From IMG/VR virus record IMGVR_UViG_3300009702_000021, positions 1 through 64,000 of that record: a stretch of 64,000 nucleotides of DNA; one strand, written 5' to 3'. A program made the translations under genes and the position numbers. The notes beneath the pieces were generated by a model. The model saw nothing but the letters and a program-made list of their open reading frames with translations. It was not told the DNA's origin and did not search any database. This document shows positions 18,117 to 59,106 of the stretch, piece after piece (the stretch's first letter is position 1; every line of letters begins with the position of its first letter). This DNA is from a virus.

Positions 18117-18249
18117 CAGCCCAGGAGGCCGTGAGAGAGCCCCGTGGTTCGTCTCAAATCCAAATCAGGTGTCCTAGGACCTATATCGGATCCATGACGA
18201 CTACAGGGCCTCAGAAGGCGTCAGGGTTGCGGTACCGCAAGGTCGAGAC

Positions 18250-31206: not shown

Positions 31207-31815
31207 ATGGCACTGACGTTGGAGCACGCTGACTTCGACTCGCCAGTTGAGGGCGGACGGGCTGGCCTACTGGCATGGTGGGTCAAGGACGAGGAGCGCA
31301 AGCAGCCATTCCTCTGCATCCGCTGGGCCGACCTCCTGGTGATACGCCCTAGGGTCTCCTGGCCCCGTGACCTAGACAGGAAGGCTATCGATGGCTGGGG
31401 ACGGGACAGCCAACACCTCGCCTACGTGCCATCGATGGGGATGTGGACGATACAGACCATTGTTCCGGTTCCGGCGCTCGGAGACCTCATGAGTTTGCGG
31501 CGCCGCAAGTACCAGCGAGCCAAGCTAGGGCGCCGGGTCTTCAGGTGGTCGAAGCGACTCAGGTTCCGTGAGCTGGACCTCTGCAACCCTGGGCTGGGCT
31601 GTAGCCTCTGGATCCCCAAGAGGTCCCTGAGGCGTCTCGAGGCAGCCCTGGAGGGCGCGGTAGGGCCCCTGAAGGGAGACCTCGACGCCAGGATAGTCCA
31701 GCCGCCCTGGGACGAAGGCACGGACCTCCTGGTTGTCTGGAAGGGAGGAGATGTCAGGGCCTCGGCGTCAATTGTCCCGACCGGAGTCCTCGAGCGCAGC
31801 ATGGCGGACAGGTGA
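31207..31815 (+). CDS. hypothetical protein
   Basis: ATG after GGGGG; overlaps the next start. Confidence 0.55.
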   Translation: MALTLEHADFDSPVEGGRAGLLAWWVKDEERKQPFLCIRWADLLVIRPRVSWPRDLDRKAIDGWGRDSQHLAYVPSMGMWTIQTIVPVPALGDLMSLRRRKYQRAKLGRRVFRWSKRLRFRELDLCNPGLGCSLWIPKRSLRRLEAALEGAVGPLKGDLDARIVQPPWDEGTDLLVVWKGGDVRASASIVPTGVLERSMADR

Positions 31816-34550
31816 TCAAGGTCACGGTCTCGCCTGCCGGCACGGTCATCTTGGAGCCTACTTCCCAGGCCGACAAGAAGACCGTAAAGGACCTGCTATA
31901 CGTCGTTCGCCGGAAAGGTAAATGGGTCACGTTCTGGACCTACCTCGTAGACCTCCGTCGTGACGTACCGGCGGGACTGCTCCAGTGGCACCCAGCGGCA
32001 ACAGCCAGGATCCGAGCCTTGCTCCGTCAGGTCCGGGATCTAATCCGGGGAGACGATGAGAGGATTGCCGGGCAATTCAAGCCAGACCGGAGGCCCTACG
32101 ACTTCCAGATGCAGGCGATCCACGCTGGCCTGAAGGCCAAGCAGATACTTATCGCTGACGATACGGGCCTCGGGAAATTATCCCCAGTCGACACCCCCGT
32201 CCTGACTCCTCTGGGCTGGCGGGAGATCGGGTCAATCCGCAAGGGAGACAGGGTCATTGGATCGGACGGGAAGCCTACAGAGGTGACGGGAGTGTTCCCA
32301 CAGGGGGTCAAGCCAAGTTACCGGGTAACGTTCTCTGACGGGTCCAGCGCAGAGGCCGGACCAGAGCACCTCTGGGCGGTTGATTACTGGAGGGGAGGTC
32401 GTACCAAGTCTCGCATCGTTATAACTACTGATGATCTACGACTGCGTCCAATCAAGGATGGACTCGACCTCTCCAAGACCAGGCTCATGGTCCCCATGCT
32501 CTCTGGTCCGGTCGAGTTCGATAAGGGCCATCCCTTGCCTATCCCTCCATATGCAATGGGTGCGTTGATCGCTAATGGGGGGCTGACTTGTGGATCGGCT
32601 GTGCTTACCTACGGGACCAAAGACTGGGACGAGATTAGGAACCTGATCTATGAGGGATACGGCTACGAACCTATGGGGAAGATTCAGAGGTCAGCCAACA
32701 CAACACGAGCCAGCCTCCTCGGGGCGATAGTCGCCGTTCGCGATCTCAAACTGGATGTGAGAAGTCAGGAAAAGTACATTCCGACCTGCTACGCCACTGC
32801 ATCTCCGGTTGACAGACTGAAACTCCTGCGCGGGCTCATGGATGCAGACGGGTCGATCACCAAGAAAAGGAATCGAGTCACCTACCATACGATCTCTTAC
32901 GACCTAGCCCACGACGTGGCTGGGCTCGTGCAAGGACTTGGTGGGATTGGCAGTGTTCGACGCTATGACCGGACCCATGAGGGTAAGCCGGTCGAGTATC
33001 AGGTCAGGGTCAAGATGCCACATGGCATCAACCCGTTCTCACTTAGGCGAAAAGCAGACCGATATAACCCAGGACCCAAGGCTGGCCCCTGCCGAACGAT
33101 CAGGACGGTCGAGTACGTTCGTGAGGCTGAGTCGGTCTGCATTTCTGTAGCTGCCAGTGACTCGCTCTACGTGGTCAAGGACCATATCTTGACTCACAAC
33201 ACCATCGAGTGCCTAGGAATCATGCTGACGGCCTTTCGGGAACGGTCGATCAAGCGCGCAGTCCTGGTCGTCCCAGCCGGGCTCAAGCACCAGTGGGCCG
33301 AGGAGATCGAAGAGTTCGCGCTCGAGGCACCGGACCCGGTGATGATCGCCGTCTCGGGAAAGAACCCACGGCGCCGGAAGCAGCTATACAAGAAGCCATG
33401 GCGGGTCCTGATCATCAACCCAGAGCTAGTAAGGATCGATGAGGACAGCCTCAGGGAAGTGGCGAATGGTGTAGGCTTCGTAGCCCTCGACGAGGCATCC
33501 TGTATCCGCAACGAGGACTCGCAGATCGCTAGGGTCATGAAGCGCCTCTGGGCCTCGGCGATCTACAAGGTGGCCCTGACGGCTACTCCTGTCGAGAACC
33601 GGCTCGCGGACCTCTGGTCGATCATCCGCTGGGTAAGCCCGAAGGCGTTCCTGAGCCGGACCTACTTCGACCGCCACTACATCGTCTGGAGGAAGCTGAG
33701 GTTCAAGGTCAAGAAGCGTACGGGACGCACGGTCACGATTACCAAGGAGGAGCCCTTGCGGTACCGCAACCTCCGGGAGGTAGAGTCAAAGATCAGGCAC
33801 TGCTACATCAGGCGCCGCGTCAGCGAAGTCGGGAAGGAGCTACCCGAGCTTGTTGTCCAGTGGGACCAGCTGCTACTCCCGAAGCGTCAGCGCGCGATCT
33901 ACGACGCCGTCAAGGACAAGCTCGAGAAGAAGATCAAGGGCCTACGCGGTGTCGCCCTCCACGCGCCACTCCAGGCCCTAAGGCAGGCGTGTAACAGCAC
34001 CGCCCTAGTCGAGAAGGATCGCGGGCAGAAACACGCCTCAGTCAAGATCGATCGGCTCAGGGAGCTGTTGGAGACCGAGTTCACTGGCGAACAGGTGATC
34101 GTGTTCACCGACTACGAGCGGTTCGGCCGGATCCTCAAGCACGAGCTGAGGGCCTACCGACCCGTGACCTACACCGGGAAGATGAACCGTCGGGACCGCC
34201 AGCAGGCGATCGATGCATTCAGGCTCGGTGATCGTAGGATCCTGATCGGGACCAAGGCACTCGAGCGGGGTCATAACCTCCAGAATGCCGCGATCGTGGT
34301 GAACATCGACCTCCCGTTCAACCCGGCCTCGGTCAAGCAGCGCCTCGGCCGAGTACGCCGCCTCGGCTCCAAGCACCAGACGGTCCGGCTCTGGAACATG
34401 GTAGTCAACGACACCGTCGAGGAGCGACTGATCATGCGCTCGCTCTACGCGAAGCGGAAGCTGTTCGAAGGGATCTTCGAGTCGGACGAGCTGACCGACG
34501 CCGACCCCCTGGAGAGGATGGTCGGAGGTAAGCTGTGGGACCTCTTGTAG
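31812..34550 (+). CDS. SNF2-family helicase containing an intein
   Basis: LIADDTGLGK|T, LDEAS, ALTATPVEN and QRLGRVRRLG motifs. Confidence 0.93.
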   Translation: MIKVTVSPAGTVILEPTSQADKKTVKDLLYVVRRKGKWVTFWTYLVDLRRDVPAGLLQWHPAATARIRALLRQVRDLIRGDDERIAGQFKPDRRPYDFQMQAIHAGLKAKQILIADDTGLGKLSPVDTPVLTPLGWREIGSIRKGDRVIGSDGKPTEVTGVFPQGVKPSYRVTFSDGSSAEAGPEHLWAVDYWRGGRTKSRIVITTDDLRLRPIKDGLDLSKTRLMVPMLSGPVEFDKGHPLPIPPYAMGALIANGGLTCGSAVLTYGTKDWDEIRNLIYEGYGYEPMGKIQRSANTTRASLLGAIVAVRDLKLDVRSQEKYIPTCYATASPVDRLKLLRGLMDADGSITKKRNRVTYHTISYDLAHDVAGLVQGLGGIGSVRRYDRTHEGKPVEYQVRVKMPHGINPFSLRRKADRYNPGPKAGPCRTIRTVEYVREAESVCISVAASDSLYVVKDHILTHNTIECLGIMLTAFRERSIKRAVLVVPAGLKHQWAEEIEEFALEAPDPVMIAVSGKNPRRRKQLYKKPWRVLIINPELVRIDEDSLREVANGVGFVALDEASCIRNEDSQIARVMKRLWASAIYKVALTATPVENRLADLWSIIRWVSPKAFLSRTYFDRHYIVWRKLRFKVKKRTGRTVTITKEEPLRYRNLREVESKIRHCYIRRRVSEVGKELPELVVQWDQLLLPKRQRAIYDAVKDKLEKKIKGLRGVALHAPLQALRQACNSTALVEKDRGQKHASVKIDRLRELLETEFTGEQVIVFTDYERFGRILKHELRAYRPVTYTGKMNRRDRQQAIDAFRLGDRRILIGTKALERGHNLQNAAIVVNIDLPFNPASVKQRLGRVRRLGSKHQTVRLWNMVVNDTVEERLIMRSLYAKRKLFEGIFESDELTDADPLERMVGGKLWDLL
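32178..33200 (+). mobile_element. class 3 intein (341 aa) with a LAGLIDADG endonuclease, in the SNF2 P-loop
   Basis: Starts LSPVDTPVLTP.GW; EHLW; LRGLMDADG; VCISV; ends ILTHN|T. Confidence 0.92.
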
Positions 34551-35003: not shown

Positions 35004-38000
35004 ATGGGAAAGAAACGCACTTGGTTCCCACACTTCCACGTCCATGACGAGCACTCGATCAAGGACGGCTGCTCGACCGTCGAGACCTACGCCGACCTGG
35101 TAGTTGAGTCAGGCGGAGACTGCCTAGCGATCACGAATCACGGGCAGGCAGCCGGGTTCGCGCGCCAGTACTTCGCCTGCCGTGACCGAAAGATCAAGCC
35201 CGTCTTCGGCATGGAGGCCTACGTCAACGAGTGGAGGACTCGCCCGATCAAGAGGCTCCAGGAGGAGCTGAAGAAGGCCGAGAAGGCTGCCAAGAAGTCG
35301 CCAGCCAGGCTCTCACAGATCAAGGCCAAGCAGGAGTCCCTCAAGCGGTTCATTGCTGAGCGGTTCCGGCCAAGCCCACATGCGATCATCCTCGCTAAGA
35401 ACCGGGTCGGCTACCAGAACCTCGTTCGCATGAGCACGGACAGCTACCAGCACGGCTTCTACTATGTGCCGCGGACCGACACCAAGTTCCTCTCCGAGCA
35501 CCGCGAGGGGCTGATCTACAGCACAGCCTGCATCGGTGGCTACATCCCCAGGATGGCCCGGGTAGACTTCGCCGCTGCGTGCGAGGAGGCTCGTCGGCTC
35601 AAGGCGATCTTCGAGGACGGCGGAGGTGGCTTCTACGTCGAGCTGATGATCACCGAGTACGAAGCACAGCGTGAGACCAACGAGGTCATGATCCGGCTCG
35701 CCACCGAGATCGGCGCCAAGTGCATCCTGACCTGCGACGTCCACTACGCGAAGCCCGACGACGGGCAGGCGCAGAACGTCCTCCTGCTGATGCGGGACAA
35801 GAAGACGATAGCCGACCGGGAGGCCGGCGAGGGAGTCTGGCAGTTCGAGGCTAAGGACCTCTGGTGGAGGACGGTCCAGGACGTGGTCCAGTGCTGGAGG
35901 GAGAACCACTCGGACTACATGGACCGGAGCTGTTTCCAGGCTGCCCTCAAGAACACCCTTGCCCTGGCAGACGAGATCGAGGACGTCGAGTTCGATACGA
36001 GCCTCAAGCTACCTGGGGTCTTCAAGGAGCCAGATCACGACCTCAAGGAGCTGGTCAAGTCGGGCTTGCGGTACCGCAAGGAGCACGGGCAGCTAGCGCC
36101 GGGAGTCAAGCTCTCGGAGTACACCGATCGGATCAAGCGTGAACTATCGGTCATCAGCCCCAAGGGGTTCAGCGAGTACTTCCTGATCCTGCACGACGTC
36201 TGCCGGGCAGCCCGGGAGATGGGAGCCCGCATGGGCCCGGGCCGCGGTAGTGCCGGCGGATCCCTGACGGCCTACCTCTGTCGGATAACCGAGATTGATC
36301 CGCTCAGGTTCGGACTCCTGTTCGAGCGGTTCCTCGATGCCGGCCGCGATGACCCACCGGACATTGACCTCGATTTCTCCCCGGAACACCGAGACGGCAT
36401 CAAGGCCTATGTCGAGAAGGCCTACCCGGCAACTGCAACGATCGGGTCCAACGCTACATTCAAGCCGCGCGCCACGCTCCAGGACGTCGGCCGGGTCTTC
36501 GGGATCGACTACCGGGAGATGCAGCAGATAACCAAGCCCCTGGGTACCGAAGCTGATGACATGACGTGGGATGAAATCTTCGAGGCCTGGCCGGCCGTTG
36601 AGAGGTTTGCTGACGACCACCCGGAGGCGTGGAGCGTCGTCCGGGTCCTCCGGGGGCTCATCAGCCACCGCGGCAAGAATGCTGCCGGGATGCTCATCGC
36701 TCCGGCCTCAGCCCTCAACGACGTCCCGATGATCATGGAGACGGACAGCAAGGGCAACAAGATGACCGTGACAGCATTTGCGGACAGCCAGGGAGACGGA
36801 GTCGAGCACAAGGGGCGGGAGCTGACTCGACTCGGCTACCTAAAGGCCGACCTGCTCGGTGTCCGAAACCTGAACATCGCGCCGCAAGCAGTCGAGATCG
36901 TAGCGCGGGATACTGGGCAGGAGATCGACCTAGAGTCACTCTCCCTCGACGACGAGGAGACGCTCCAGACTGCGGCAACGGGAGACGTCCCAGGGGCCTT
37001 CCAGCTCGACACCAACACGACGCGACCGATCCTCCGTCACGTCGGGGTAGATAGCTTCGCTGACCTAGTCATGATTACTGCCCTCTGCCGACCAGGTCCC
37101 CTCAAGAATCAGATTCATCGTGAGTTCGCCAAACTCAAGCGCAGCGATGCATGGGAGGACGATGTACTGCCAGAACTAAGGGAGCTGCTCCGGGACAGCC
37201 GCGGACTCATGGTCCTCCAGGAGGACGTCATGTGGGTCGTGCAGGTAGTCAGCGGCATGTCGATGCAGGAGGCCAACATGCTCCGAAAGATCATGTCGAA
37301 GAAGCAACCTGAGGCGATGAAGCAGTGGAAGGAGAGGTTCGTTGAGGGAGGCAAGGAGGTAGGGCTCGCCACGGAAGAGGAGCTGGTCGAGCTGTGGGAC
37401 AAGATCAAGACCTTTGCCGGCTACGGGTTCAATAAATGTGTATGTTATAATCAGCCCATCACCGTGAGGCGGACTTGCGGTACCGCAAAGGAGACTGATC
37501 GTGGGCAAGAGTACACCAACGAAGTGCGCGTGTGGGGCGGTGTTCCCGAAGAAGAAGTTGTGGGTGGACCACAAGAGGACGTGCAGTCCACACAAGGAGA
37601 TAGTCAAACAGGCCCGGCTGTCCAACCTCGCCAAGGCCAATGCACCGGATGCGAGGGAGAGGGCGCGAAAGACTTTCCTGATGAGGGATTACGAGGTAAC
37701 CGAGGCCCAGAGAGATGCTCGAAGGAAGAATGCCCGCAAGCACCTCACGCCGTGGGCGCAGAGCGAGGATGGCAGGAGGGTGTCTTCCGAGACAGCCAAG
37801 AAAACGTCAGCGAGGAAGGATGTCAAGCAGGCGAGGGCGAAGCGCATGAAAGAGTGGGTGCGAAACAATCCAGGAGTGATCGCTCGGACAGGTCAGCGTG
37901 CAGCGGCACTGGCCATCGACGGAGCAGGGGAGCTGGAGTTAGCAGAACTTCTTCACAATCTGAATGTAGTCAGACAGGAAGTGGTAGAGGTCGTACCGGG

Positions 38001-39644
38001 AAAGTTCGGCCTGTTCGATCTATCTCTTCCGAGCCGAAGCGTATTGATCGAGGTGGACGGCTCAGAGCACTTCAATCAGGGTGGACGGGAGATGATCGCC
38101 GACTACGCCAAGGAGGACTGGGTCAGGAGCAAGGAAAACGAGCAGGGGTGGGGATTGATCAGGGTACAACTCACCAACGACCGCAGGCTAGTCAGGGAAG
38201 TGAAGATCGGACTCTTGCGAGCTATCAAGAAAATCAAACCGAGGGAGGTTCTATTCGTCGGGGATTGCTACGACAAGAGGAGGAGGCCCAAGAAGAGGAA
38301 ACGATCCCGATCGGCGAAGTAGCCGTCGGTGACCTCGTCCTCGCACAGGATGGAGACTGGGTCCGAGTCCTCGACGTCCATGACCACGGTCTCCAAGAGT
38401 GCGTGGAGGTAGTGCTTCCGACCGGCTCCGTGGTCTGCACCTGGGATCACCGTTTTCCTACCCCACAGGGAACCCTGACGCTGCACAAAATCATCAATAC
38501 CAAAACTCGGATCCTCACAAAGCAGCGCCTCGACACCATCTCAATTGACACCTGGCAGCTTCCGACCTCTGTCACTCCAGTTGGAGTTCGTCACACCGTT
38601 GATCTCGAGGTTGACCACCCGACTCACTGCTACTTCCTCGCCAACGGAGTCTGCACCCACAACAGCCACGCTACCGCCTACATGATCACTGCCTACCGTC
38701 AGCTCTACATGCTGACCCACCACACGGTCGAGTACTTCGCTGCCCTGCTGACTCACACGCCGCGGGGTAAGAAGACTGCCGGCGGCGGGGAGCTGGTGGT
38801 CGACTACATGCGAGCCGCGATGTCCCGGCGGATCACCCTGCTGGGTCCATGTGTTGTAGACGGAGCTATCGGTTTCGACGTCGATAAGTACGGTCGGATT
38901 CGCTACGGCCTCGGGCACGTCAAGGGAGTCGGAGGCGCAGCCCAACTGGTAATGGCTGCGAGTCCGTTCGAGTCCCTCGAGGATATGTTCGACCGGATCG
39001 AACGACGCCGGGTCAACTCGCGCGTGTTCAAGCAGCTGATCTTCAGCGGCGCCCTGGACAAGCTCGACTTCAACCGACACGCCGGCAAGGGTGACCCGAT
39101 CCCGGAGTGGATCGGAGTCGAGCGCAGAAATGGGATCCTAGCCCGCTATGAGCAGCTGAGGAAGGCGAAGGAGACACCAGATGTATTCTCGACATCGGTC
39201 CTCCGGGAGAAGGAACGTGAGGTGCTAGGACTCCCGCTGTCCTGGTGGTCCTCCGACACGGTCCAGGAACTGCGCGACCAGGAGGGGCTGGAGACGATCG
39301 ACTATCACCTCCGCAGTGACCTCAGCAAGCTAGAGATCATCGCCGAGGTCAGCAGAGCTAGGACGCACCGGACCAAGAAGGGGACGACGATGGCGTTCCT
39401 GACGCTGGCGGACGAGACCGGGACCCTGCCGAACGTCACGATCTGGCCCGAGCAGTGGTCAACATACAGGCGGATGCTCTCCCAGGGTCGGATGGCGATC
39501 ATCCGCCTCCGGCGCAAGGAGAATCACAACCGCGAGTTCGGTGAGTGGTCCTACTACCTCGAGGACAAGTGGAGCGAGCCCGTCGAGAGCGTGGCCCGCG
39601 CACTACGGCGTGATACCGAAGGCGTGGAATCGGATGACGAATAG
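35004..39644 (+). CDS. dnaE: DNA polymerase III alpha subunit containing an intein
   Basis: PHP motif HFHVHDEHSIKDG; GPGRGSAGGSL; LLFERFL; PPDIDLDF; YGFNK|SHA; C-terminal OB fold. Confidence 0.96.
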   Translation: MGKKRTWFPHFHVHDEHSIKDGCSTVETYADLVVESGGDCLAITNHGQAAGFARQYFACRDRKIKPVFGMEAYVNEWRTRPIKRLQEELKKAEKAAKKSPARLSQIKAKQESLKRFIAERFRPSPHAIILAKNRVGYQNLVRMSTDSYQHGFYYVPRTDTKFLSEHREGLIYSTACIGGYIPRMARVDFAAACEEARRLKAIFEDGGGGFYVELMITEYEAQRETNEVMIRLATEIGAKCILTCDVHYAKPDDGQAQNVLLLMRDKKTIADREAGEGVWQFEAKDLWWRTVQDVVQCWRENHSDYMDRSCFQAALKNTLALADEIEDVEFDTSLKLPGVFKEPDHDLKELVKSGLRYRKEHGQLAPGVKLSEYTDRIKRELSVISPKGFSEYFLILHDVCRAAREMGARMGPGRGSAGGSLTAYLCRITEIDPLRFGLLFERFLDAGRDDPPDIDLDFSPEHRDGIKAYVEKAYPATATIGSNATFKPRATLQDVGRVFGIDYREMQQITKPLGTEADDMTWDEIFEAWPAVERFADDHPEAWSVVRVLRGLISHRGKNAAGMLIAPASALNDVPMIMETDSKGNKMTVTAFADSQGDGVEHKGRELTRLGYLKADLLGVRNLNIAPQAVEIVARDTGQEIDLESLSLDDEETLQTAATGDVPGAFQLDTNTTRPILRHVGVDSFADLVMITALCRPGPLKNQIHREFAKLKRSDAWEDDVLPELRELLRDSRGLMVLQEDVMWVVQVVSGMSMQEANMLRKIMSKKQPEAMKQWKERFVEGGKEVGLATEEELVELWDKIKTFAGYGFNKCVCYNQPITVRRTCGTAKETDRGQEYTNEVRVWGGVPEEEVVGGPQEDVQSTQGDSQTGPAVQPRQGQCTGCEGEGAKDFPDEGLRGNRGPERCSKEECPQAPHAVGAERGWQEGVFRDSQENVSEEGCQAGEGEAHERVGAKQSRSDRSDRSACSGTGHRRSRGAGVSRTSSQSECSQTGSGRGRTGKVRPVRSISSEPKRIDRGGRLRALQSGWTGDDRRLRQGGLGQEQGKRAGVGIDQGTTHQRPQASQGSEDRTLASYQENQTEGGSIRRGLLRQEEEAQEEETIPIGEVAVGDLVLAQDGDWVRVLDVHDHGLQECVEVVLPTGSVVCTWDHRFPTPQGTLTLHKIINTKTRILTKQRLDTISIDTWQLPTSVTPVGVRHTVDLEVDHPTHCYFLANGVCTHNSHATAYMITAYRQLYMLTHHTVEYFAALLTHTPRGKKTAGGGELVVDYMRAAMSRRITLLGPCVVDGAIGFDVDKYGRIRYGLGHVKGVGGAAQLVMAASPFESLEDMFDRIERRRVNSRVFKQLIFSGALDKLDFNRHAGKGDPIPEWIGVERRNGILARYEQLRKAKETPDVFSTSVLREKEREVLGLPLSWWSSDTVQELRDQEGLETIDYHLRSDLSKLEIIAEVSRARTHRTKKGTTMAFLTLADETGTLPNVTIWPEQWSTYRRMLSQGRMAIIRLRRKENHNREFGEWSYYLEDKWSEPVESVARALRRDTEGVESDDE
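37437..38663 (+). mobile_element. DnaE intein (409 aa) carrying an out-of-frame nested endonuclease gene
   Basis: FNK|CVCY...CTWDHRF...TVDLEVDHPTHCYFLANGVCTHN|SH. Confidence 0.92.
37501..38322 (+). CDS. nested DUF559/Vsr-like PD-(D/E)xK homing endonuclease (+1 frame within the intein)
   Basis: SD AAGGAG 37488-37493 then GTG; N-terminal CxC..H...C; FDL....SVLIEVDGSEHF...D..K.....GW.LIRV. Confidence 0.85.
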   Translation: MGKSTPTKCACGAVFPKKKLWVDHKRTCSPHKEIVKQARLSNLAKANAPDARERARKTFLMRDYEVTEAQRDARRKNARKHLTPWAQSEDGRRVSSETAKKTSARKDVKQARAKRMKEWVRNNPGVIARTGQRAAALAIDGAGELELAELLHNLNVVRQEVVEVVPGKFGLFDLSLPSRSVLIEVDGSEHFNQGGREMIADYAKEDWVRSKENEQGWGLIRVQLTNDRRLVREVKIGLLRAIKKIKPREVLFVGDCYDKRRRPKKRKRSRSAK

Positions 39645-40550: not shown

Positions 40551-40876
40551 GCAAGCCGATGTTTCAGAAAAGGGATCTCGACCTCATCCGAGCCGCGACC
40601 TGGGGCTGCTGGGACGCGGTGAAGACCAAAGACCACCTCGGGGACGCGGCTAGGAAGCGAGGTCTCGTAGCCAGGACCGCGACCGGTGATGCCCACGAGA
40701 CAGCCTTCAAGTGGGCCCGGCAGGAGCAGAGGGCCCACGATCTGCTTGCGGTACCGCAACCCATCAACGGGACCCTGCGGGATTACATCGCCTGCACCTG
40801 CTCCTACGACGAGAGTGAGGAGATGACGCGCCATGCTCCGCTATGCTCGATCACCAAGGCGGGGATCAACTGGTGA
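40547..40876 (+). CDS. hypothetical protein
   Basis: SD GGAGG, TTG start overlapping the upstream stop. Confidence 0.5.
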   Translation: MSKPMFQKRDLDLIRAATWGCWDAVKTKDHLGDAARKRGLVARTATGDAHETAFKWARQEQRAHDLLAVPQPINGTLRDYIACTCSYDESEEMTRHAPLCSITKAGINW

Positions 40877-43302
40877 GCGACTACGAACACATCATCACCG
40901 CCGGGATCCTCCAGCGCCCGTCCCGCATTTCAGACGTCTCGTCGATCAAGCACGAGTACTTCTCAGACAAGGAGGCCCGAGCCCTCTTTGCGATGGTCCA
41001 GACCTACCACGAGAAGTGCGGCCGGCGGAACGCGATGGACATCGCCCTCGCCCGGTCGCGTCTCGAGGACAGCAAGAGTAAGCTCGCGCCACACCTGCTC
41101 TACCTCGTCGACGAGTACACGGAGCTGGACCCGGTCACCGACTCCGAATTCAGGGACGCGATCGAGAAGCTGGTCACCTCGCGCCGGGAGGGGCTGCTGC
41201 GTGAGCATGGCGCCGCTGCCCTGGAAGCCATGGTCGAGGGAGAGTACTCCGAGGCGACCGCCCGGATGCGCGAGGCCCTTCTGGCGGCCGACGACACGGA
41301 CCTCGAGGACGACCGACCCGTCGACATCCGCAGCTCCGTCGAGATCGACCGGGAGCGCCGGAGGACCGAGCGGCCACCCGAGGACGGGACGCTGGGGTTC
41401 GACATCGGGTTCCCTCGGCTGATGCGCGCCACCCGGTTCCGCCGCAAGGAGCTGACGATCCTGGGAGGCTACGCCTCAGATGGCAAAGCACTGAGCCATG
41501 GGACCCCGGTCTTGACCCCGAGCGGTTGGAGGGATGTCGAGGACGTCCGGGTCGGGGAGCTGGTAACCGGCCGGGACGGGAGTCCCACCCGGGTCGTCGG
41601 CGTGTTCCCCCAAGGACGACGAGACCTGCTCAGGGTCACCTTTGCTGACGGGTGCTGGGTGGACGTGGACCAGGACCACCTCTGGGCGGTCCAGGATGTC
41701 AATGACGCCAGGAGACCTGGGTTGGTGACGAGGACCAAGACGACAAGAGAGTTGGTCCCGGACCTGCGCCTCAAGAATGGCTCCGCCAAGTGGCGGGTTC
41801 CGCTCTGCGGCTCGGTGGAATTCGAGCCCGGTCCGCCGCTCCTGATCGACCCCTACCTGCTCGGGGTCCTCTTGGGTGACGGGTGCCTGAGTCAGACTTC
41901 CGTCACCTTCTGCACCGGTGACGAGGACGTCCCGTGCGAGGTAGAGAAGGTGCTGCCTCGGGGCGTGGTCATGCGCAAAAACGGGACCGACGAAGCCTCA
42001 GGCAGGGCCGTGCGCTACAGCCTCGTGACAGAGGGGAGGAGACAGAACCCCGCCAGAGATGCCCTCGAGGCCCTCGAGGTGATGGGCAAGAGGGCCTGGG
42101 AGAAGACGGTTCCCGAGGTCTATCTCTTCGCCAGCCCCGAGGATCGACTCTCTCTCCTGCAGGGGCTCGTCGATACCGACTCAGACGTGGCCTCGAGAGG
42201 GAAGCCCAGTTTCGTGTTCACCTCTTCGTCCGAGAACCTGACCCGCTCAGTGGCCTTCCTGGTGCGCTCACTTGGTGGTGTCGCCCGGGAGCGAAGCCGA
42301 ATTCCCACCTACTGCCACCTCGGCGAGAAGAAGCAAGGTAGGAGGTCCTACGAAGTGTGCGCGAACCTCCCGGTTCACCTGATCCCGACTAGGGCCCACC
42401 GCACCAAGTGGCCGACGAGGCTGAGCAGGAACCTCGTCAGGAAGATCACGGCCATTGAGCCCGTCGGGGAGGCGGAGGCGACCTGTCTAGCGGTTGAGGC
42501 CGAGGACCACCTATTCATCGTCAAGGACTTCGTAGTCACACACAACACTCAGTTCAGCAAGTCACTGGCCTACAACGTCAACCGAGCGGGTGCGACCGTG
42601 ATCTTCGTTGCGCTTGAGATGACCCGTGAAGAGATACGCACGATGTTCGTAGCCCAACATGCGGCATCCCTAGATCCCCGCGGGGTGCCGTGGGTCGACG
42701 CCCTGGACGGGATCCTGAACGCCGGCCAACGGAAGCTGTGGCACCGGGCCCTCGACGACTGGCAGATCGACTCGCACGAGGACACGGACGAGATGACCAG
42801 CGAGTCCGGCTCTCTGATCATCTGGGCGCCGACCCGGCGGATCACACAGGCAGACTGGAAGGCCAGGTTGCGGGCGTCGAAGCAGGAACACGGGATCGAC
42901 GTCGCCTTCAAGGACTACACCGAGCTGGTCAAGCCCTAGGAGATCAAGCGATTCAAAAACTACCGGCTCGACCTCAAGGAGATGATCGAGGAAGACAAGG
43001 CACTCGCGCGGGAGCTAGACATCTGGCTCGTTGACAATCACCAGATCAGCCGGAAGGGACGCGACGAGGCTGAGAAGAGGAACCCACCGCACTACCTGAT
43101 GCGCGACCTCGGTGAGTCCTCCGGCCTCGAGCGCGCGGCTGACTCTGTGCTCTGGATCTACAGCGACATGGACCTCCGGGATGACCGCGGGGCCATTGCC
43201 GGGGTAGCCAAGGCCCGGAAGGGCAAGCCGATCATCCACGGCGTCCGGCTCTACGCCGACTTCGAGAAGGCCGTGGTCGCGCCGCGGGCCGACTACGACT
43301 AG
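40873..43302 (+). CDS. dnaB: DnaB-like replicative helicase with an intein and an in-frame TAG at 42937-42939
   Basis: ELTILGGYASDGK|T, FVALEM and KDY, then the same frame continues KALAREL...HQISR...DLGESSGLERAAD...KAR.G. Confidence 0.85.
41488..42546 (+). mobile_element. class 3 intein (353 aa) with a LAGLIDADG endonuclease, in the DnaB P-loop
   Basis: Starts ALSHGTPVLTP.GW; DHLW; LGVLLGDG; LQGLVDTD; TCLAV; ends VVTHN|T. Confidence 0.92.
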
Positions 43303-49159: not shown

Positions 49160-49320
49160 CGCTCCCGACTCGTGCGTATCTAGAGGCGGCAGGGGAGCCC
49201 CAGCACGAGGCCGGAACCCAAGCTTGGAGACCAAGACCTAGGAGACAGATTCAGGTCCGTGGTGGGCCGGAGAATGAATGACAGAGGGATGTGCTGGCCG
49301 ACCCCAGCGTGGAGACACCC

Positions 49321-52300
49321 ATGAGCAAGAGCAGGTTGACCCCGGTCCTGAAGGGCCTCAACCCCATAGAGAAGTCGAGAGTTGAGACCTGGGTGCCCAC
49401 GGACCGGGAGGGCCTGGTCGTTCGGGTCAGGGATCCCGGACCCGGTGAGGGGATCCCGGTCACCCTGATCGAGGACCTGACTGAGGTAGAGGTCCACGAC
49501 GAGACATCCGGTGCGTGGATCCGGGGCCGCGCCGCAGCACAGACTACCCCTGGCTGGCCCGTCACGCTGATCAAGGCCGTCGAGAGGATCCGCGCCGAGG
49601 CCGAGCGAGCCATGGTCTGCCCGGAGTGCGACAGCTACCTGATCCTCCGGGACCGGGACCTAGAGTGCGCGGAGTGCGGACTGTGCATGAACCCCGACTG
49701 CCCGAACTGCGGAGGCCGGACGGCCTTGCGGTACCGCAAGCTCAAGGGCCAGCCAGCCGACATCCCTCCGGCATTCTGGGCGTGCCGGGATGATGCCTGC
49801 GCCTCTGCGCTCCTGTGGGGCCAGCGAGACCCTCAACCACAGCAGGTCCCGGATAAGCCGTGGACGGAGCACGGGGAGAGGGAGGAGCAGATCGCGGAGG
49901 CGCGTGAGGTCCTAGATCACCCGCTGGTCTCGGAAGCCAATGCGGTCAAGAAGCTGCGAGTGATCCTCGACGAGAACCCCGACCGGGTCCTGCCACTGGT
50001 CCTCGGGGAGACCACGCCCTCAGGCAAGAAGACGGTCCAAGCCAGGCTCGAGGAAAAGCTGGCTGAGGAGCGCCGGCAGGGCAAGCCACGACGCCGGGTC
50101 AAGAGGCGTGCCCAGAAGGCACGCCGGGTCCAGCCCGGGGAGAAGCGTGAGGGTATCAAGTACTACGGCCCCGAGGACTCATTGCCTGGTCCGTCCGGGA
50201 CGTCCCTGGTCGAGGTCCCTGAGGACGATGAGACCTCCGTGGCGTCGTCTGTCTACCCACACCACCGGCTAGCTCATGCAGCGCTGAACCCGATCCAGTC
50301 GCGCGTCCTCGATGTCTATGACCGGAACTGCAACGTGGTGATCGCCGCCAGCACCAGTGCTGGTAAGACCCTCAGCGCTGAGATGGTCATGGGTGACGCC
50401 CTCGACCGCGGCGCCAAAGCGATCTTCCTCGCGCCGCTCCGGGCCGTCAGCCAGGAGAAGTACGACGACTGGTGCGATGAGGACCACCCGTGGTCAGAAC
50501 TAGGGGTCGAAATCTGCACGGGTGACTACACGATGAGCCAGGCGAAGCGGAAGGCCCTGCGCCGCGCCGACGTGATCGTGATGACATCTGAGATGCTCGA
50601 CTCCAAGACGCGTCGGATGGGGAGCGACGAGAACGGCTGGCTGATGGAGACACTCTGCGTGGTCGGCTCCTCCGGGATTGCACTTGCGGACGGGACTACG
50701 AAGACAATCAAGGAGATCGTGGAGGAGCGTCTCGAGATTGAGGTCTTAGCTTTCAATCACTCGATTGGGAAAGTCGTCAAGCGCAGGGTGACGGGATGGC
50801 ACAAGAACCGGTTAGGAGACAGGAATCTCGTTGAGATCACTTGCGGTACCGCAAGTCTGACCTGCACCGAAGATCATGAGATATACCAGCGAGGCGTGGG
50901 GTATACTGCTGCCAGGAAGCTCACATCTTCGAGCACGCTGGAGGTGCTGGATGCCGGTCAAGAAGGGACACAGATTCGGCGCGAAGCGCACGGTCGAGCT
51001 GACGGACATAGAGCGATCGGTTGTCATAGGGACACTGCTCGGAGACAGCTCACTATCGTGGGGAACAGGGAACCGGGTAAGTGCCAGAATGCGTGTGAGG
51101 AACAGCCTCGCACAGCGGGAGTTCGTGTTGTGGAAGTACGAGATGCTTCGGCGTCTTGTGCGGACTCCTCCGAAGGAGGCGCCGAATCGTGGATACAAGC
51201 GCGACGGAATGGCATTCGGATTTTCCACGAGGTCCTTCGGAGAGGACCTACTCAAGATCAAACAATTGATCGAACCCGGGAAGACGGTGACGCGCGATCT
51301 GCTGGACTTGTTGACGGAGCCAGAGGGACTGGCCGCGTGGTACATGGACGACGGATCGAGGTCGAGGGGGGCGAGTCTCGTACTACATACACAGTCAATG
51401 ACTGCCGACGAGGTGCGGTTGACGTCGCGTTGGCTCAGGGAGGAGTGGAATATCGAGACCAGGCCGATGTCGGTCAAGAACAGAGCCTACGAGGTGCTAC
51501 GTATTCCGGCGGAATCAGGCGAGCGGTTTATGGATATCGTGAGACCATTCGTGACCGGGATAACATGCATGGAGCACAAGGTATTGCACAGGAGAGAGTC
51601 GCTGTTCTGCACGATGTGCGGCACAGGGTTCGAGGCAACGAGGCGTCAGATCCAGCGCGAGACGAGACTTGTCACCTGCCGGTCCGAGGACTGCATGAGG
51701 GCCCTAGCCCGTATGATTCAGAGACTGAACGACGCGAGGATCGGTTCGTCTACGACCTAACCGTCGAGGGTGAGCACAACTACTTCGCCGAGGGAGTCCT
51801 GGTCCACAACTGCGTGGTCGTTGACGAGGCTCACCTGCTAACGATGAAGGACCGCGGCGACGCCTTGGAGTGCGGACTCGAGCGATTCACTCGGTTCAAC
51901 CCCCACGCTAGGATCGTCCTCCTCAGCGCGACCATGCCGAACGTCCATGAGCTAGGGTCCTGGCTGACCCGCCTGAACGGGAAGCCGACCCGCCTTGTCC
52001 AGAGCGCGTGGCGTCCCACCAAGCTGACCGTTCACCCCGTGCCGTACGACCACCAGACGTCGGGTTACAGCTACCACAAGAACGAGGACTCCAAGCGGGC
52101 TAAGGCGATCGAGCTGCTCCAGAAGTACAGCGAGGACAAGTGGATCGTCTTCGTCCACACGAAGAAGATGGGCCACGCCCTGCTGGCCCAGCTACGGGAC
52201 CGGCACGAGCCAGCCGAATTCCATAGCGCTGACCTCACCCGAGACAACAGGCTCCGGCTCGAGGACCGGTTCAGGCACGGAGACCTCAGGGTCGTCGTAG

Positions 52301-53391
52301 CCACTTCGACCCTGGCCTACGGCATCAACATGCCGGCGCGACGGGTCATGGTCGTCGGAATCCACCGCGGCCTGGAGAAGGTCGCACCGCTAGACGTACT
52401 CCAGATGTTCGGGCGGGCCGGGCGAGTGGGCCTCGACCCTGAAGGCGATGCCTACCTACTGGTCCCGGAGACCCGTGATCCACGCGAGTTCGACCGGACC
52501 GTCGAGGCCTACTCGAAGCCAGGTCTGATCGAGAGCCAGCTGAACGAACTGCACACGCTGGCCTTCCACTTGACGGCGGAGGTAGCCGAGGGGTCAGTGA
52601 GGACGACCGCGGATGCAGTTGCCTGGCACGCCCGTTCGCTCGCGGCACAGCAGGGCCGGGGTCTTGACCAGGAAGGGAAGGTGCTCAGCGCCTCCCGGGT
52701 AATGCATGACCTCTGCCAGTGCGGCGTCCTCAAGGAGGAGGACGGGAGCTATGAGGCGACACAGCTCGGTCACGTCGCGAGCCGACTCTACTACAGTCCG
52801 TTCGACGTAGCTGACTGGGCGTCCAACTTCCGCTGGGCCGCGGAGCGGGATAAGCACCACAACGATGACGTGGTCGCGTGGGCGCTCGGGAACGTCCGGT
52901 CGGCCTATTCCAAGAGCTACTTGCCGAAGGAACACGCTGGTGACATGGGAGACCTCGAGTGGCGCCTAGGACAGGTCGGAGTGGACCGGGCCTCCAACCT
53001 CCCGCCCGCTTGCCTGGCTTTCCGTGGGATGATCGAGGGGACCAAGTACAGGGCGATGTCGTCCTATCAGCGCCAGCTAGAGTACGACGCCGACAGGATC
53101 ATGCAGGCGATCACCATGATCGACGCTCGGGTGCTCAAGTCGCTCGGGAAGACCTACTGTGACGGCCTGGGTATGCGACTTCGCTACGGGTGCTCCTGGG
53201 AGGAGGCCGACCTGTGTCACATCCCCGGGGTAGGCTCCCGCCGCGCACGGCAACTGGCTGCCGCGGGAGTCAGTGGGGTAATGGACGTCCTGGAGAATCG
53301 CAAGAAGGTGGTCGACGCACTCGGGAGCAAGATCGCGCAGAGCGTGATCCGCGGGGCTAAGGAGGTTGCCAGGAAGCGTGGAGCGCGTTGA
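49321..53391 (+). CDS. Ski2/Hel308-like SF2 helicase with N-terminal Zn ribbons and an intein
   Basis: LNPIQ, ASTSAGKT, VVVDEAH, LSAT, ATSTLAYGINMPAR, QMFGRAGR and a C-terminal HhH; exact start uncertain. Confidence 0.92.
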   Translation: MSKSRLTPVLKGLNPIEKSRVETWVPTDREGLVVRVRDPGPGEGIPVTLIEDLTEVEVHDETSGAWIRGRAAAQTTPGWPVTLIKAVERIRAEAERAMVCPECDSYLILRDRDLECAECGLCMNPDCPNCGGRTALRYRKLKGQPADIPPAFWACRDDACASALLWGQRDPQPQQVPDKPWTEHGEREEQIAEAREVLDHPLVSEANAVKKLRVILDENPDRVLPLVLGETTPSGKKTVQARLEEKLAEERRQGKPRRRVKRRAQKARRVQPGEKREGIKYYGPEDSLPGPSGTSLVEVPEDDETSVASSVYPHHRLAHAALNPIQSRVLDVYDRNCNVVIAASTSAGKTLSAEMVMGDALDRGAKAIFLAPLRAVSQEKYDDWCDEDHPWSELGVEICTGDYTMSQAKRKALRRADVIVMTSEMLDSKTRRMGSDENGWLMETLCVVGSSGIALADGTTKTIKEIVEERLEIEVLAFNHSIGKVVKRRVTGWHKNRLGDRNLVEITCGTASLTCTEDHEIYQRGVGYTAARKLTSSSTLEVLDAGQEGTQIRREAHGRADGHRAIGCHRDTARRQLTIVGNREPGKCQNACEEQPRTAGVRVVEVRDASASCADSSEGGAESWIQARRNGIRIFHEVLRRGPTQDQTIDRTREDGDARSAGLVDGARGTGRVVHGRRIEVEGGESRTTYTVNDCRRGAVDVALAQGGVEYRDQADVGQEQSLRGATYSGGIRRAVYGYRETIRDRDNMHGAQGIAQERVAVLHDVRHRVRGNEASDPARDETCHLPVRGLHEGPSPYDSETERREDRFVYDLTVEGEHNYFAEGVLVHNCVVVDEAHLLTMKDRGDALECGLERFTRFNPHARIVLLSATMPNVHELGSWLTRLNGKPTRLVQSAWRPTKLTVHPVPYDHQTSGYSYHKNEDSKRAKAIELLQKYSEDKWIVFVHTKKMGHALLAQLRDRHEPAEFHSADLTRDNRLRLEDRFRHGDLRVVVATSTLAYGINMPARRVMVVGIHRGLEKVAPLDVLQMFGRAGRVGLDPEGDAYLLVPETRDPREFDRTVEAYSKPGLIESQLNELHTLAFHLTAEVAEGSVRTTADAVAWHARSLAAQQGRGLDQEGKVLSASRVMHDLCQCGVLKEEDGSYEATQLGHVASRLYYSPFDVADWASNFRWAAERDKHHNDDVVAWALGNVRSAYSKSYLPKEHAGDMGDLEWRLGQVGVDRASNLPPACLAFRGMIEGTKYRAMSSYQRQLEYDADRIMQAITMIDARVLKSLGKTYCDGLGMRLRYGCSWEEADLCHIPGVGSRRARQLAAAGVSGVMDVLENRKKVVDALGSKIAQSVIRGAKEVARKRGAR
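50656..51810 (+). mobile_element. intein (385 aa) before Walker B, carrying an out-of-frame nested endonuclease gene
   Basis: L|CVVGSS...CTEDHEI...VYDLTVEGEHNYFAEGVLVHN|C. Confidence 0.92.
50951..51760 (+). CDS. nested LAGLIDADG homing endonuclease (+1 frame within the intein)
   Basis: SD GGAGGT 50940-50945 then ATG; IGTLLGDSS and LAAWYMDDGS motifs; C-terminal CxxC...CxxxxC. Confidence 0.88.
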   Translation: MPVKKGHRFGAKRTVELTDIERSVVIGTLLGDSSLSWGTGNRVSARMRVRNSLAQREFVLWKYEMLRRLVRTPPKEAPNRGYKRDGMAFGFSTRSFGEDLLKIKQLIEPGKTVTRDLLDLLTEPEGLAAWYMDDGSRSRGASLVLHTQSMTADEVRLTSRWLREEWNIETRPMSVKNRAYEVLRIPAESGERFMDIVRPFVTGITCMEHKVLHRRESLFCTMCGTGFEATRRQIQRETRLVTCRSEDCMRALARMIQRLNDARIGSSTT

Positions 53392-58449: not shown

Positions 58450-59106
58450 GTGGCAGGACGAGTCAGGAAGCGTAAGCAGCAGAAACTATATGTCGGAGTC
58501 GACCCGGGAAAAGAGGGGTTTATCTGCGCCGTTGACCACCGCTGTCACATCAGAGTCATGTGGTCGATTCCCTACGCCGGGAAGCAGATCGATGAGGTCC
58601 TGTTGGCGAAGATGATCATCGCGCTGGTCAAGTCCGGGGCCCAGGTGTTCTTCTTGGAGCACCAGCAGCCGCACGCGAAGGAAGGCGCGGTCGGGGCCCA
58701 CAGCGGTGGGACTGCCTACGGCGCCCTGAGGATGGCCTGTGCCATGGCCGGGATCCTGGGCAAGGTGCCCTACGAGATCCTCCGGCCGGAGGACTGGAAG
58801 CGCAGGGCGAAGATCCCGGTGCCATCCGTCCCGAAGGCTAAGCTGCCGCCGGAGCCGGAGAAGACTAAGAAGGCCGACCACCGACGCTGGAAGAAGGAGG
58901 TTGAGAAGATCAAGGCCAAGCGGAGCCGGGAGGTTAAGAAAAGGCGGAAGGCCCACAGTATCGCGATGGCCGAGCGCCTCCAGCCGCACTATGACTTCTA
59001 CAAGACCGCGAGGTCGAAGGGACCACACGACGGCAAGTGCGAATCGTTCTTGCTGGCGAGAGAGGCCTGGAAGCAGGCCCGAGGGATTAGAGACGATGCC
59101 ACCTAA
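58450..59106 (+). CDS. RuvC-like Holliday junction resolvase
   Basis: VGVDPG..G, FLE, P..WK and DG..ES.LLA motifs. Confidence 0.8.
   Translation: MAGRVRKRKQQKLYVGVDPGKEGFICAVDHRCHIRVMWSIPYAGKQIDEVLLAKMIIALVKSGAQVFFLEHQQPHAKEGAVGAHSGGTAYGALRMACAMAGILGKVPYEILRPEDWKRRAKIPVPSVPKAKLPPEPEKTKKADHRRWKKEVEKIKAKRSREVKKRRKAHSIAMAERLQPHYDFYKTARSKGPHDGKCESFLLAREAWKQARGIRDDAT

Follow-up and report, generated by a model that had tools for sequence, protein, structure and literature searches.

How can one phage gene encode an unbroken DNA polymerase and, inside its intein, a complete endonuclease in another reading frame? The question is raised by the dnaE gene of a 64,000-nucleotide stretch of viral DNA (hereafter the window), which covers positions 1 to 64,000 of the IMG/VR virus record IMGVR_UViG_3300009702_000021, a record of 83 kb with a CheckV completeness of about 45%. 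A first-pass annotation, made from the sequence alone, had described here a dual-coding intein with an endonuclease gene nested in the +1 frame at an atypical position. Our analysis supports this description: we give a probability of about three in four to the reading that a homing endonuclease gene of the free-standing type lies in the +1 frame within a cis-splicing mini-intein of the phage dnaE, in the hairpin loop of block A. The two pieces of the Hint domain hold all the catalytic residues, and a close relative of the polymerase has an empty site. The features under discussion are listed below; positions are those of the window, slashes mark splice junctions, and the block names follow the intein nomenclature.

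35004 to 39644, plus strand: phage dnaE (DNA polymerase III alpha) open reading frame (ORF), 1546 aa, uninterrupted by stops across the intein and the nested gene.
37437 to 38663, plus strand: class-1 type intein, 409 aa, DnaE residues 812-1220, between K811 and S1221 (GYGFNK/SHA).
37437 to 37466, plus strand: first 10 or so intein residues, CVCYNQPITV, the putative first beta-strand of block A, cut off from the rest of Hint by the insert.
37467 to 38297, plus strand: the nested gene as read in the dnaE frame (its shadow), about 277 aa, stop-free and hydrophilic.
37475 to 37488, no strand assigned: perfect 14-bp palindrome TTGCGGTACCGCAA, abutting the Shine-Dalgarno (SD) sequence of the nested gene.
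37488 to 37493, plus strand: ribosome-binding site AAGGAG, 7 nucleotides before the GTG, read directly from the sequence.
37501 to 38322, plus strand: nested gene in the +1 frame, 273 aa, GTG start, with a C2H2-like zinc finger and a DUF559/Vsr-like core.
38298 to 38322, plus strand: true overlap, where the last 8 codons and the stop of the nuclease (..RSRSAK, stop) lie over the resumed Hint strand ETIPIGEV.
38298 to 38663, plus strand: remaining Hint domain, 122 aa, with the putative second strand of block A (ETIPIGEVAVGD), block B (TWDH) and blocks F/G (VDLEVDHPTHCYFLANGVCTHN).
38664 to 38666, plus strand: codon of the +1 extein serine, the nucleophile for splicing (alanine in the empty-site relative P0003).

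The host gene is a dnaE by its domains (PHP, DNA_pol3_alpha, finger and HHH_6 in Pfam; a match to PHROG 405 at 2.9e-238), and its frame is open throughout the intein at the coordinates first proposed. The intein sequence opens with CVCYNQPITVRR and closes with ...VDLEVDHPTHCYFLANGVCTHN, after which SHATAY follows. Its catalytic set is complete, comprising C812 (Cys1), the TWDH of block B, the C-terminal THN and S1221 at +1, and this register agrees with the alignment to the solved intein 7cfv. The N-terminal residues (about 10) are followed by filler rich in G, R, E, Q and S (about 277 residues), and Hint sequence is recognisable again from intein residue 288 (ETIPIGEV, nucleotide 38298). Searched with phmmer against PDB, the Hint part matched the Spl DnaX mini-intein (7cfv, 3.5e-9), DnaB inteins (6rix, 5.2e-6), gp41-1 (6qaz, 3.1e-5) and the Ssp/Npu DnaE inteins (about 1e-3); BLAST against mini-inteins located at the same site of DnaE gave 1e-8. 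Many bacterial DnaE proteins carry mini-inteins or LAGLIDADG inteins at this GYGFNK/ site.

The relative with the empty site, P0003 (1143 aa), is colinear with the window polymerase on both sides of the element. It shows 663/820 (81%) identity to DnaE residues 4-811 and 231/318 (73%) to residues 1219-1536, with nothing between the two blocks, and reads ...GFNK/AHS... at the junction. The seven nearest DnaE relatives, of 1112-1145 aa, all lack the insert.

The sequence read in the +1 frame was proposed to encode a 273-aa zinc-finger and DUF559/Vsr-like nuclease preceded by AAGGAG and GTG. The gene, its homologues and its motifs were all found. The frame is bounded upstream by a TGA at 37465-37467 and downstream by a TAG within the resumed Hint strand. 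The profile searches suggested in the first-pass annotation were carried out for both parts of the element, and an exhaustive HMMER search with the nuclease returned 26 homologues at E<=1e-3 (best 1.4e-17), mostly of free-standing size (210-310 aa). Alignments show a CxC...H...C zinc finger at the N-terminus, and C2H2 fingers were matched in PDB; this finger is followed by the conserved motif SETAKKTSARPDIQ..RA..L..WR (SETAKKTSAR...W). In a family alignment of 47 sequences, the window nuclease (P0002) matches 11/11 invariant and 11/11 near-invariant columns. The residues D173, D186, G187, H190, F191, D206 and R221 never vary, and E144 and E184 occur in no fewer than 90% of the sequences; the window protein has every one of them and thus shares the core D...ExDGxxHF...R of the family. 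The DUF559 label itself had to be qualified. Pfam recognised DUF559 in 6 of 18 family members (best 4e-6) and Vsr in one of the 18, but neither family in the window nuclease, for which only PvuRts1I-like_N appeared, at 0.0053 and below the cut-off; the assignment is therefore made because of the matches of its homologues and not its own. Further matches were obtained with PHROG homing-endonuclease families (2.9e-5 and 1e-3), and the nearest homologue lies among viral DUF559/C2H2/NUMOD3 clusters of the ESM Atlas. Searches of PDB with two profiles of the nuclease family reached AbaSI, with its Vsr-like domain, at 0.0046 and 0.05 and 3hrl at 0.13 and 0.093, and did not reach the EDxHD enzyme I-Bth0305I (3R3P) at E<=10.

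The codon usage of the two frames was also compared. The GC content at the three codon positions is 0.56/0.44/0.71 in the nuclease frame, 0.70/0.57/0.44 in the dnaE frame over the insert and 0.63/0.40/0.82 in the dnaE exteins; the third-position value is thus 0.71 for the nuclease frame versus 0.44 for the host frame, and about 0.8 in genes of this phage. The local RNA fold at the nuclease start was no better than that of shuffled sequences (z -0.81). The homologues, the conserved catalytic columns and the gene-like GC pattern show that a genuine nuclease gene occupies the +1 frame, and it is this frame that is under amino-acid selection.

If the nuclease frame is the one selected for its protein, the open dnaE frame above it needs an explanation. 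The shadow filler is composed of G (16%), R (12%), E (12%), Q (10%) and S (9%), with only 13% of I/L/V/F/M/W/Y and a grand average of hydropathy of -1.28. The nuclease ORF contains 29 NNT codons and 100 codons that start with AA, AG or GA, and not one NNT codon stands directly before such a codon. When its synonymous codons were permuted, 0 of 20000 permutations left the dnaE frame stop-free; the permuted versions carried 1-17 stops, with a mode of 8 and about 8.5 expected. The same relative frame of 42 control ORFs of the window showed no depletion (597 stops observed versus 558 expected, ratio 1.07) and its longest open run was 202 codons. The claim that the shadow frame is stop-free was thus borne out, and the accompanying caveat, that such frames are often open in GC-rich genes, is answered by these control ORFs. 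We also weighed the proposal that the open frame is a by-product of a GC-rich, purine-rich composition, the polymerase being perhaps non-functional or made in some other way. The region is indeed 56-59% GC, and the converse permutation, of the codons of the filler, has little force, as it leaves the +1 frame open by chance in 6.8% of cases, so that the case for the nested gene rests on homology and not on ORF length. The permutations and the controls described above nevertheless speak against this proposal, as does the occurrence of the zero-stop pattern in relatives at 34-44% GC, while split relatives have 21-61 stops; we regard it as very improbable. The dnaE frame over the nuclease is kept stop-free by selection on codon choice. 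The shadow is a low-hydrophobicity reading that is kept only stop-free, and it presumably forms a disordered loop removed with the intein.

Compensating indels and removal of the insert as an RNA intron had been named at the outset as outcomes that would overturn the dual-coding description, and both were looked for. Two indel errors could in principle mask an ordinary in-frame endonuclease domain. The Logan contig of the sole run containing the stretch, a subsurface metagenome, is identical over 37300-38800 with 0 gaps at a depth of about 15, but it probably derives from the same sample and the same reads and is hence not independent. Further observations speak against an error: the nuclease frame is shut by the TGA 33 nucleotides before the GTG and by the TAG in the resumed Hint strand, the presence of an in-frame domain would not explain why the other frame lacks stops, and the same +1 relation recurs on 13 independent viral contigs. 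An assembly or sequencing error is therefore hardly credible.

Removal at the RNA level, through a group I intron with the nuclease ORF inside it or through translational bypassing, would leave the filler untranslated. There is a precedent in that Vsr-like nuclease genes occur in group I introns of recA, as described in the accessible part of Dassa et al. 2009 (PMC2677866). However, an Rfam scan detected no RNA family in the insert at E<=1 (the only match, a sub-threshold JUMPstart, lies outside it), and the insert is taken up by the ORF, so that a ribozyme core would find about 35 nucleotides of room before it and none after it. Moreover, RNA removal would not select a stop-free host frame, and this explanation has in our view very little chance of being correct. 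The same holds for a programmed +1 ribosomal frameshift from the dnaE frame, which would yield the nuclease as a fusion with the N-extein plus the start of the intein. It would suit two open frames that overlap on the same strand, but the TGA at 37465-37467 confines any shift to 37468-37500, a canonical AAGGAG-N7-GTG is present, and an SD-like sequence precedes an ATG in the related loci L003, L013 and L019. Thus the chance open frame, the indel artefact, the intron or bypass and the programmed frameshift were all rejected.

The position of the nested gene was examined within the intein fold. Solved inteins aligned to the Hint part always from their residue 17-20 or so through the terminal HN. 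A by-eye register against mini-inteins at the same site (P0016, CVTGDTLIEMGNGSRKPIVEIRDGDLV, CVTGDTLIEM...) places CVCYNQPITV as strand one and ETIPIGEVAVGDLV as strand two. This first-strand register was set partly by inspection, the automatic alignment of the whole intein having put the first residues of the window intein inside the filler. Since the strand register and the PDB alignments starting at residue 17-20 concur, the insert appears to take the place of the block-A hairpin loop. Block B (TWDH) and block F are separated by about 47 residues only, and no endonuclease ORF occupies this usual region. The aligned start of the window nuclease falls 24 codons downstream of the first residue of the intein and its stop 341 nucleotides before the intein end, while in nine other dual-coding loci with both junctions found the aligned start falls 87-142 codons after residue 1 and the stop 8-56 nucleotides before the end. 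These data support the atypical, N-proximal location first proposed near block A, in a loop about 10 residues from the intein N-terminus and not between blocks B and F. Engineered inteins split at site S1 (Ssp DnaB S1 and others) have N-terminal intein fragments (IntN) of 11-12 aa and were functional in only 4/14 cases (PMC3620165); natural atypically split inteins have an IntN of 15-25 aa (PMC10189870, PMC11923092), and the shortest one characterised is given as 15 residues (PMC10189870). To judge from the accessible parts of these papers, the break in the window intein would match the engineered S1 site and lie closer to the N-terminus than in the natural atypically split inteins.

Is this arrangement restricted to the window? 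The family alignment yielded 38 viral loci carrying this nuclease family, and Hint-like segments were detected in 34 of them using the Hint part of the window intein. Thirteen of the 38 are dual-coding: the frame one base behind the nuclease contains zero stops over 145-357 codons, even at the low GC contents given above. Each of the 13 is a phage dnaE gene whose frame runs without a stop across the element, which sits at the same GYGFNK/...N/SH site. In ten of them the motifs of both splice junctions were located, in a common frame relative to which the nuclease is at +1; the remaining three (including L004 and L008) show the N junction alone, in the same frame. Per-locus permutations left 0/2000 stop-free for the window and for each of the 12 full-length dual loci. 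The other 25 loci have the 21-61 host-frame stops mentioned before, and nine of these, examined in detail, consist of an IntN of 98-141 aa with a stop, then the nuclease gene, then a C-terminal intein fragment (IntC) of 37-45 aa with its own start.

In a maximum-likelihood tree of 37 nucleases, the window protein included and the fragmentary L036 and L040 left out, a single 100/100 branch separates the 13 nucleases of dual-coding loci, that of the window among them, from the 24 of split loci. In place of the ratio of nonsynonymous to synonymous changes proposed at first, which calls for close homologues, the two frames were compared between distant dual-coding loci and not between close relatives of the window element. 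The nuclease frame was more conserved than the shadow in 73/78 pairs (median identity 0.37 versus 0.26), with alignment scores of, for example, 866 for the nuclease frame and 406 for the shadow frame. The dual-coding layout is a long-lived state common to one nuclease clade, found in 13 other phage dnaE inteins. This modifies the suggestion that the window element is an intermediate towards fused or split inteins: the dual-coding layout stands, but it is not a one-off.

Several further observations concern these loci. In the dual loci, among them L013 (4194-4204), L019 (4344-4354) and L025 (4086-4096), the nuclease stop ends 8-56 nucleotides before the last codon of the intein, so that in these canonical dual loci the conserved C-terminal part of the nuclease overprints intein blocks F/G. 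In L036 (3339-3776), which has both junctions, the nuclease is reduced to a 145-codon remnant covering profile positions 172-232 only and the host frame is open (permutation P = 0.004); it looks like a decaying stage toward a mini-intein. The nucleases of L003 and L007, from different IMG/VR samples (metagenomes), differ at 1 base in 777, and the change is non-synonymous in both frames. Among the split loci, a mild and unexplained deficit of host-frame stops was seen in L037 (17 versus 27.3 expected, P 0.001) and in L014-L016 (22 versus 27.9 expected, P about 0.04).

How would such an element work? Ribosomes translating dnaE would read through the insert as a hydrophilic, probably disordered loop of about 277 residues, and the 10-residue N-terminal strand would dock onto the remaining Hint fold. 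Protein splicing would then take out the intein and the loop together to give an intact polymerase; since the host gene is one ORF without a stop, the intein must act in cis. The nuclease would be made separately, by internal initiation at AAGGAG-N7-GTG beside a palindromic motif found throughout the phage. It may cut dnaE alleles of co-infecting phages that lack the intein or the nuclease (of the P0003 type), and repair would copy the intein together with the nuclease. Splicing, internal initiation, and cleavage and homing by the window element are steps that we infer from the sequence. The underlying proposal of the first-pass annotation, that a free-standing endonuclease gene invaded a mini-intein, agrees with the homologues, the conserved columns, the matches to solved mini-inteins and the empty site of P0003.

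Several points weigh against a functional element of this kind, and among them are the converse permutation test, the shared origin of the second assembly and the missing Pfam assignment of the nuclease, all described above. Splicing of a precursor with a 277-residue insert in the block-A loop is a prediction, and of the engineered S1-split inteins only 4 of 14 worked (PMC3620165). No Pfam intein or Hint model matches the intein at E<=10. The branch of the window nuclease is very long (3.04), its nearest row, L025, being 28% identical, so that its exact place in the tree is unsure. Close relatives were found neither among phage records with blastn and tblastn, nor among viral contigs, for which the nuclease, the Hint part, the complete DnaE and P0003 served as queries (L002 gave only a 17-residue match), nor among metagenome contigs queried with the nuclease and the Hint part; a word-indexed protein search of a 5.8-billion-cluster collection did not return the nested nuclease. 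Some of these points suit the view that the dual coding is real but a dead end, in which splicing is blocked, the phage depends on a different polymerase or on splicing at a low level, and the nuclease is decaying or domesticated. None of the collections searched yielded a second copy of the element, splicing with an insert in the block-A loop is a prediction, and with about 45% of the genome in the record a second polymerase could exist. However, the intein has kept every catalytic residue and the nuclease every invariant column, the 83-kb record contains a single dnaE, and zero host-frame stops against about 8.5 expected argue for selection that continued after insertion. We regard a dead end as unlikely, and retain the reading of an active nested nuclease in a splicing intein.

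The window contains other elements of interest. At <=2 mismatches the palindrome TTGCGGTACCGCAA occurs at 26 sites versus 0.08 expected, for example at 18227, 21230, 27671, 37475, 50841 and 56671. Many copies lie 9-30 nucleotides upstream of start codons with SD-like sequences, and the motif is probably a regulatory element of the phage. Five genes of the window bear inteins or intein-like inserts. One of them is a second dual-coding intein, in a DEAD-box helicase ORF (49291-53391, 1366 aa; Pfam Intein_splicing at residues 463-840). Nested in it at the usual position, in the +1 frame, is a 294-aa LAGLIDADG_2 endonuclease gene (50876-51760, E 3.2e-27), whose ATG is preceded at 22 nucleotides by a copy of the palindrome; its host frame is stop-free versus 8.1 stops expected, with 0/10000 permutations stop-free. 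Intein-like inserts with an in-frame LAGLIDADG were seen at 31812-34550 (SNF2-type helicase), at 58739-61339 (RecA) and at 40843-42939 (an unassigned 698-aa protein, with weak Hint matches below the Pfam cut-offs).

The locus has implications for the evolution and the use of inteins. The out-of-frame layout extends beyond the nuclease families and hosts described before. In phage dnaE, the Vsr-like lineage shows an old, selected dual-coding state beside the split-intein or "fractured" state at the same site, and the placement at block A and S1 may offer a natural route to atypically split inteins. A bolder interpretation, which we put forward as possible but rather doubtful, is that the window intein splices in cis in nature with an entire gene accommodated in its S1 loop, that it represents the unbroken precursor so far missing for atypically split inteins with a very short IntN, and that the nuclease lineage has evolved a stop-free -1 frame as a portable adaptation. 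If so, such a frame would let the cassette land in frame in tolerant loops without breaking the host gene, and would explain why one clade occurs at two positions in different dnaE inteins, always at +1. Intein residues 1 to 10-12 together with 288-409 could then work as a new split intein with an ultra-short IntN. Short N-fragments are valued in peptide-based protein labelling, and an intein that splices with an N-fragment of 10-12 residues, shorter than the 15 of PMC10189870, would be a candidate scaffold. The locus is also a reminder for gene callers that nested +1 genes in inteins stay uncalled, the window nuclease having escaped the word-indexed search as well.

The window element can finally be compared with known systems, as far as the accessible parts of the cited works describe them. 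It is a contiguous intein that contains a complete endonuclease ORF under a stop-free host frame, and as such belongs with the inteins whose endonuclease is out of frame. In actinophages, non-canonical inteins with a frame-3 endonuclease VII-like gene or with anti-sense LAGLIDADG or VSR-like genes were described, and it was proposed that they arose when free-standing endonuclease genes invaded inteins (Gosselin, Arsenault & Gogarten, 10.1101/2025.01.02.630785); a cyanobacterial dnaX intein also has an out-of-frame endonuclease (Phillips et al., 10.64898/2026.09.14.751524). Shared with the window are a contiguous, presumably splicing intein and a complete ORF of a free-standing endonuclease family in another frame. 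The actinophage genes, however, lie within the usual endonuclease region, whereas the window has a sense-strand +1 Vsr-like/DUF559 gene in dnaE, in the putative block-A loop. Some DNA-polymerase cases of these preprints may overlap with the loci described here; in the literature covered, we found no contiguous dnaE intein with a Vsr-like gene in the +1 frame of the sense strand, and neither that literature nor the 38 loci showed an endonuclease gene in the block-A loop.

Fractured genes, in which split inteins flank a free-standing Vsr-like endonuclease gene, were reported at three phage dnaE loci (Dassa et al. 2009, PMC2677866), and the nine split loci of our family examined in detail have this layout. 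They resemble the window in their Vsr-like nuclease, their phage dnaE host, their own expression signals and the overlap of the nuclease 3′ end with the downstream intein coding region. Unlike them, the window host gene is unbroken, as a single 1546-aa ORF, and the nuclease lies elsewhere in the intein. In the engineered S1 split inteins, as apparently in the window, the Hint fold is interrupted behind its first beta-strand, some 10-12 residues into the intein; they are two polypeptides that splice in trans, while the window parts are joined by the shadow-frame linker of about 277 residues. The accessible parts of the reports on natural atypically split inteins (PMC10189870, PMC11923092) mention no nuclease gene at the split site. 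A further parallel is ShiLan, a hidden out-of-frame HNH endonuclease in a phage methylase gene (Arsenault et al. 2025, PMC11855218). There too an out-of-frame endonuclease with a GTG start lies in a stop-free host ORF and its host-frame reading is tolerated as a loop, but no intein is present, the loop stays in the mature protein and the nuclease is of the HNH type. Out-of-frame intein endonucleases are thus already known from preprints of 2025-2026; as far as these describe them, what the window adds is the nuclease family, the frame and, above all, the position.

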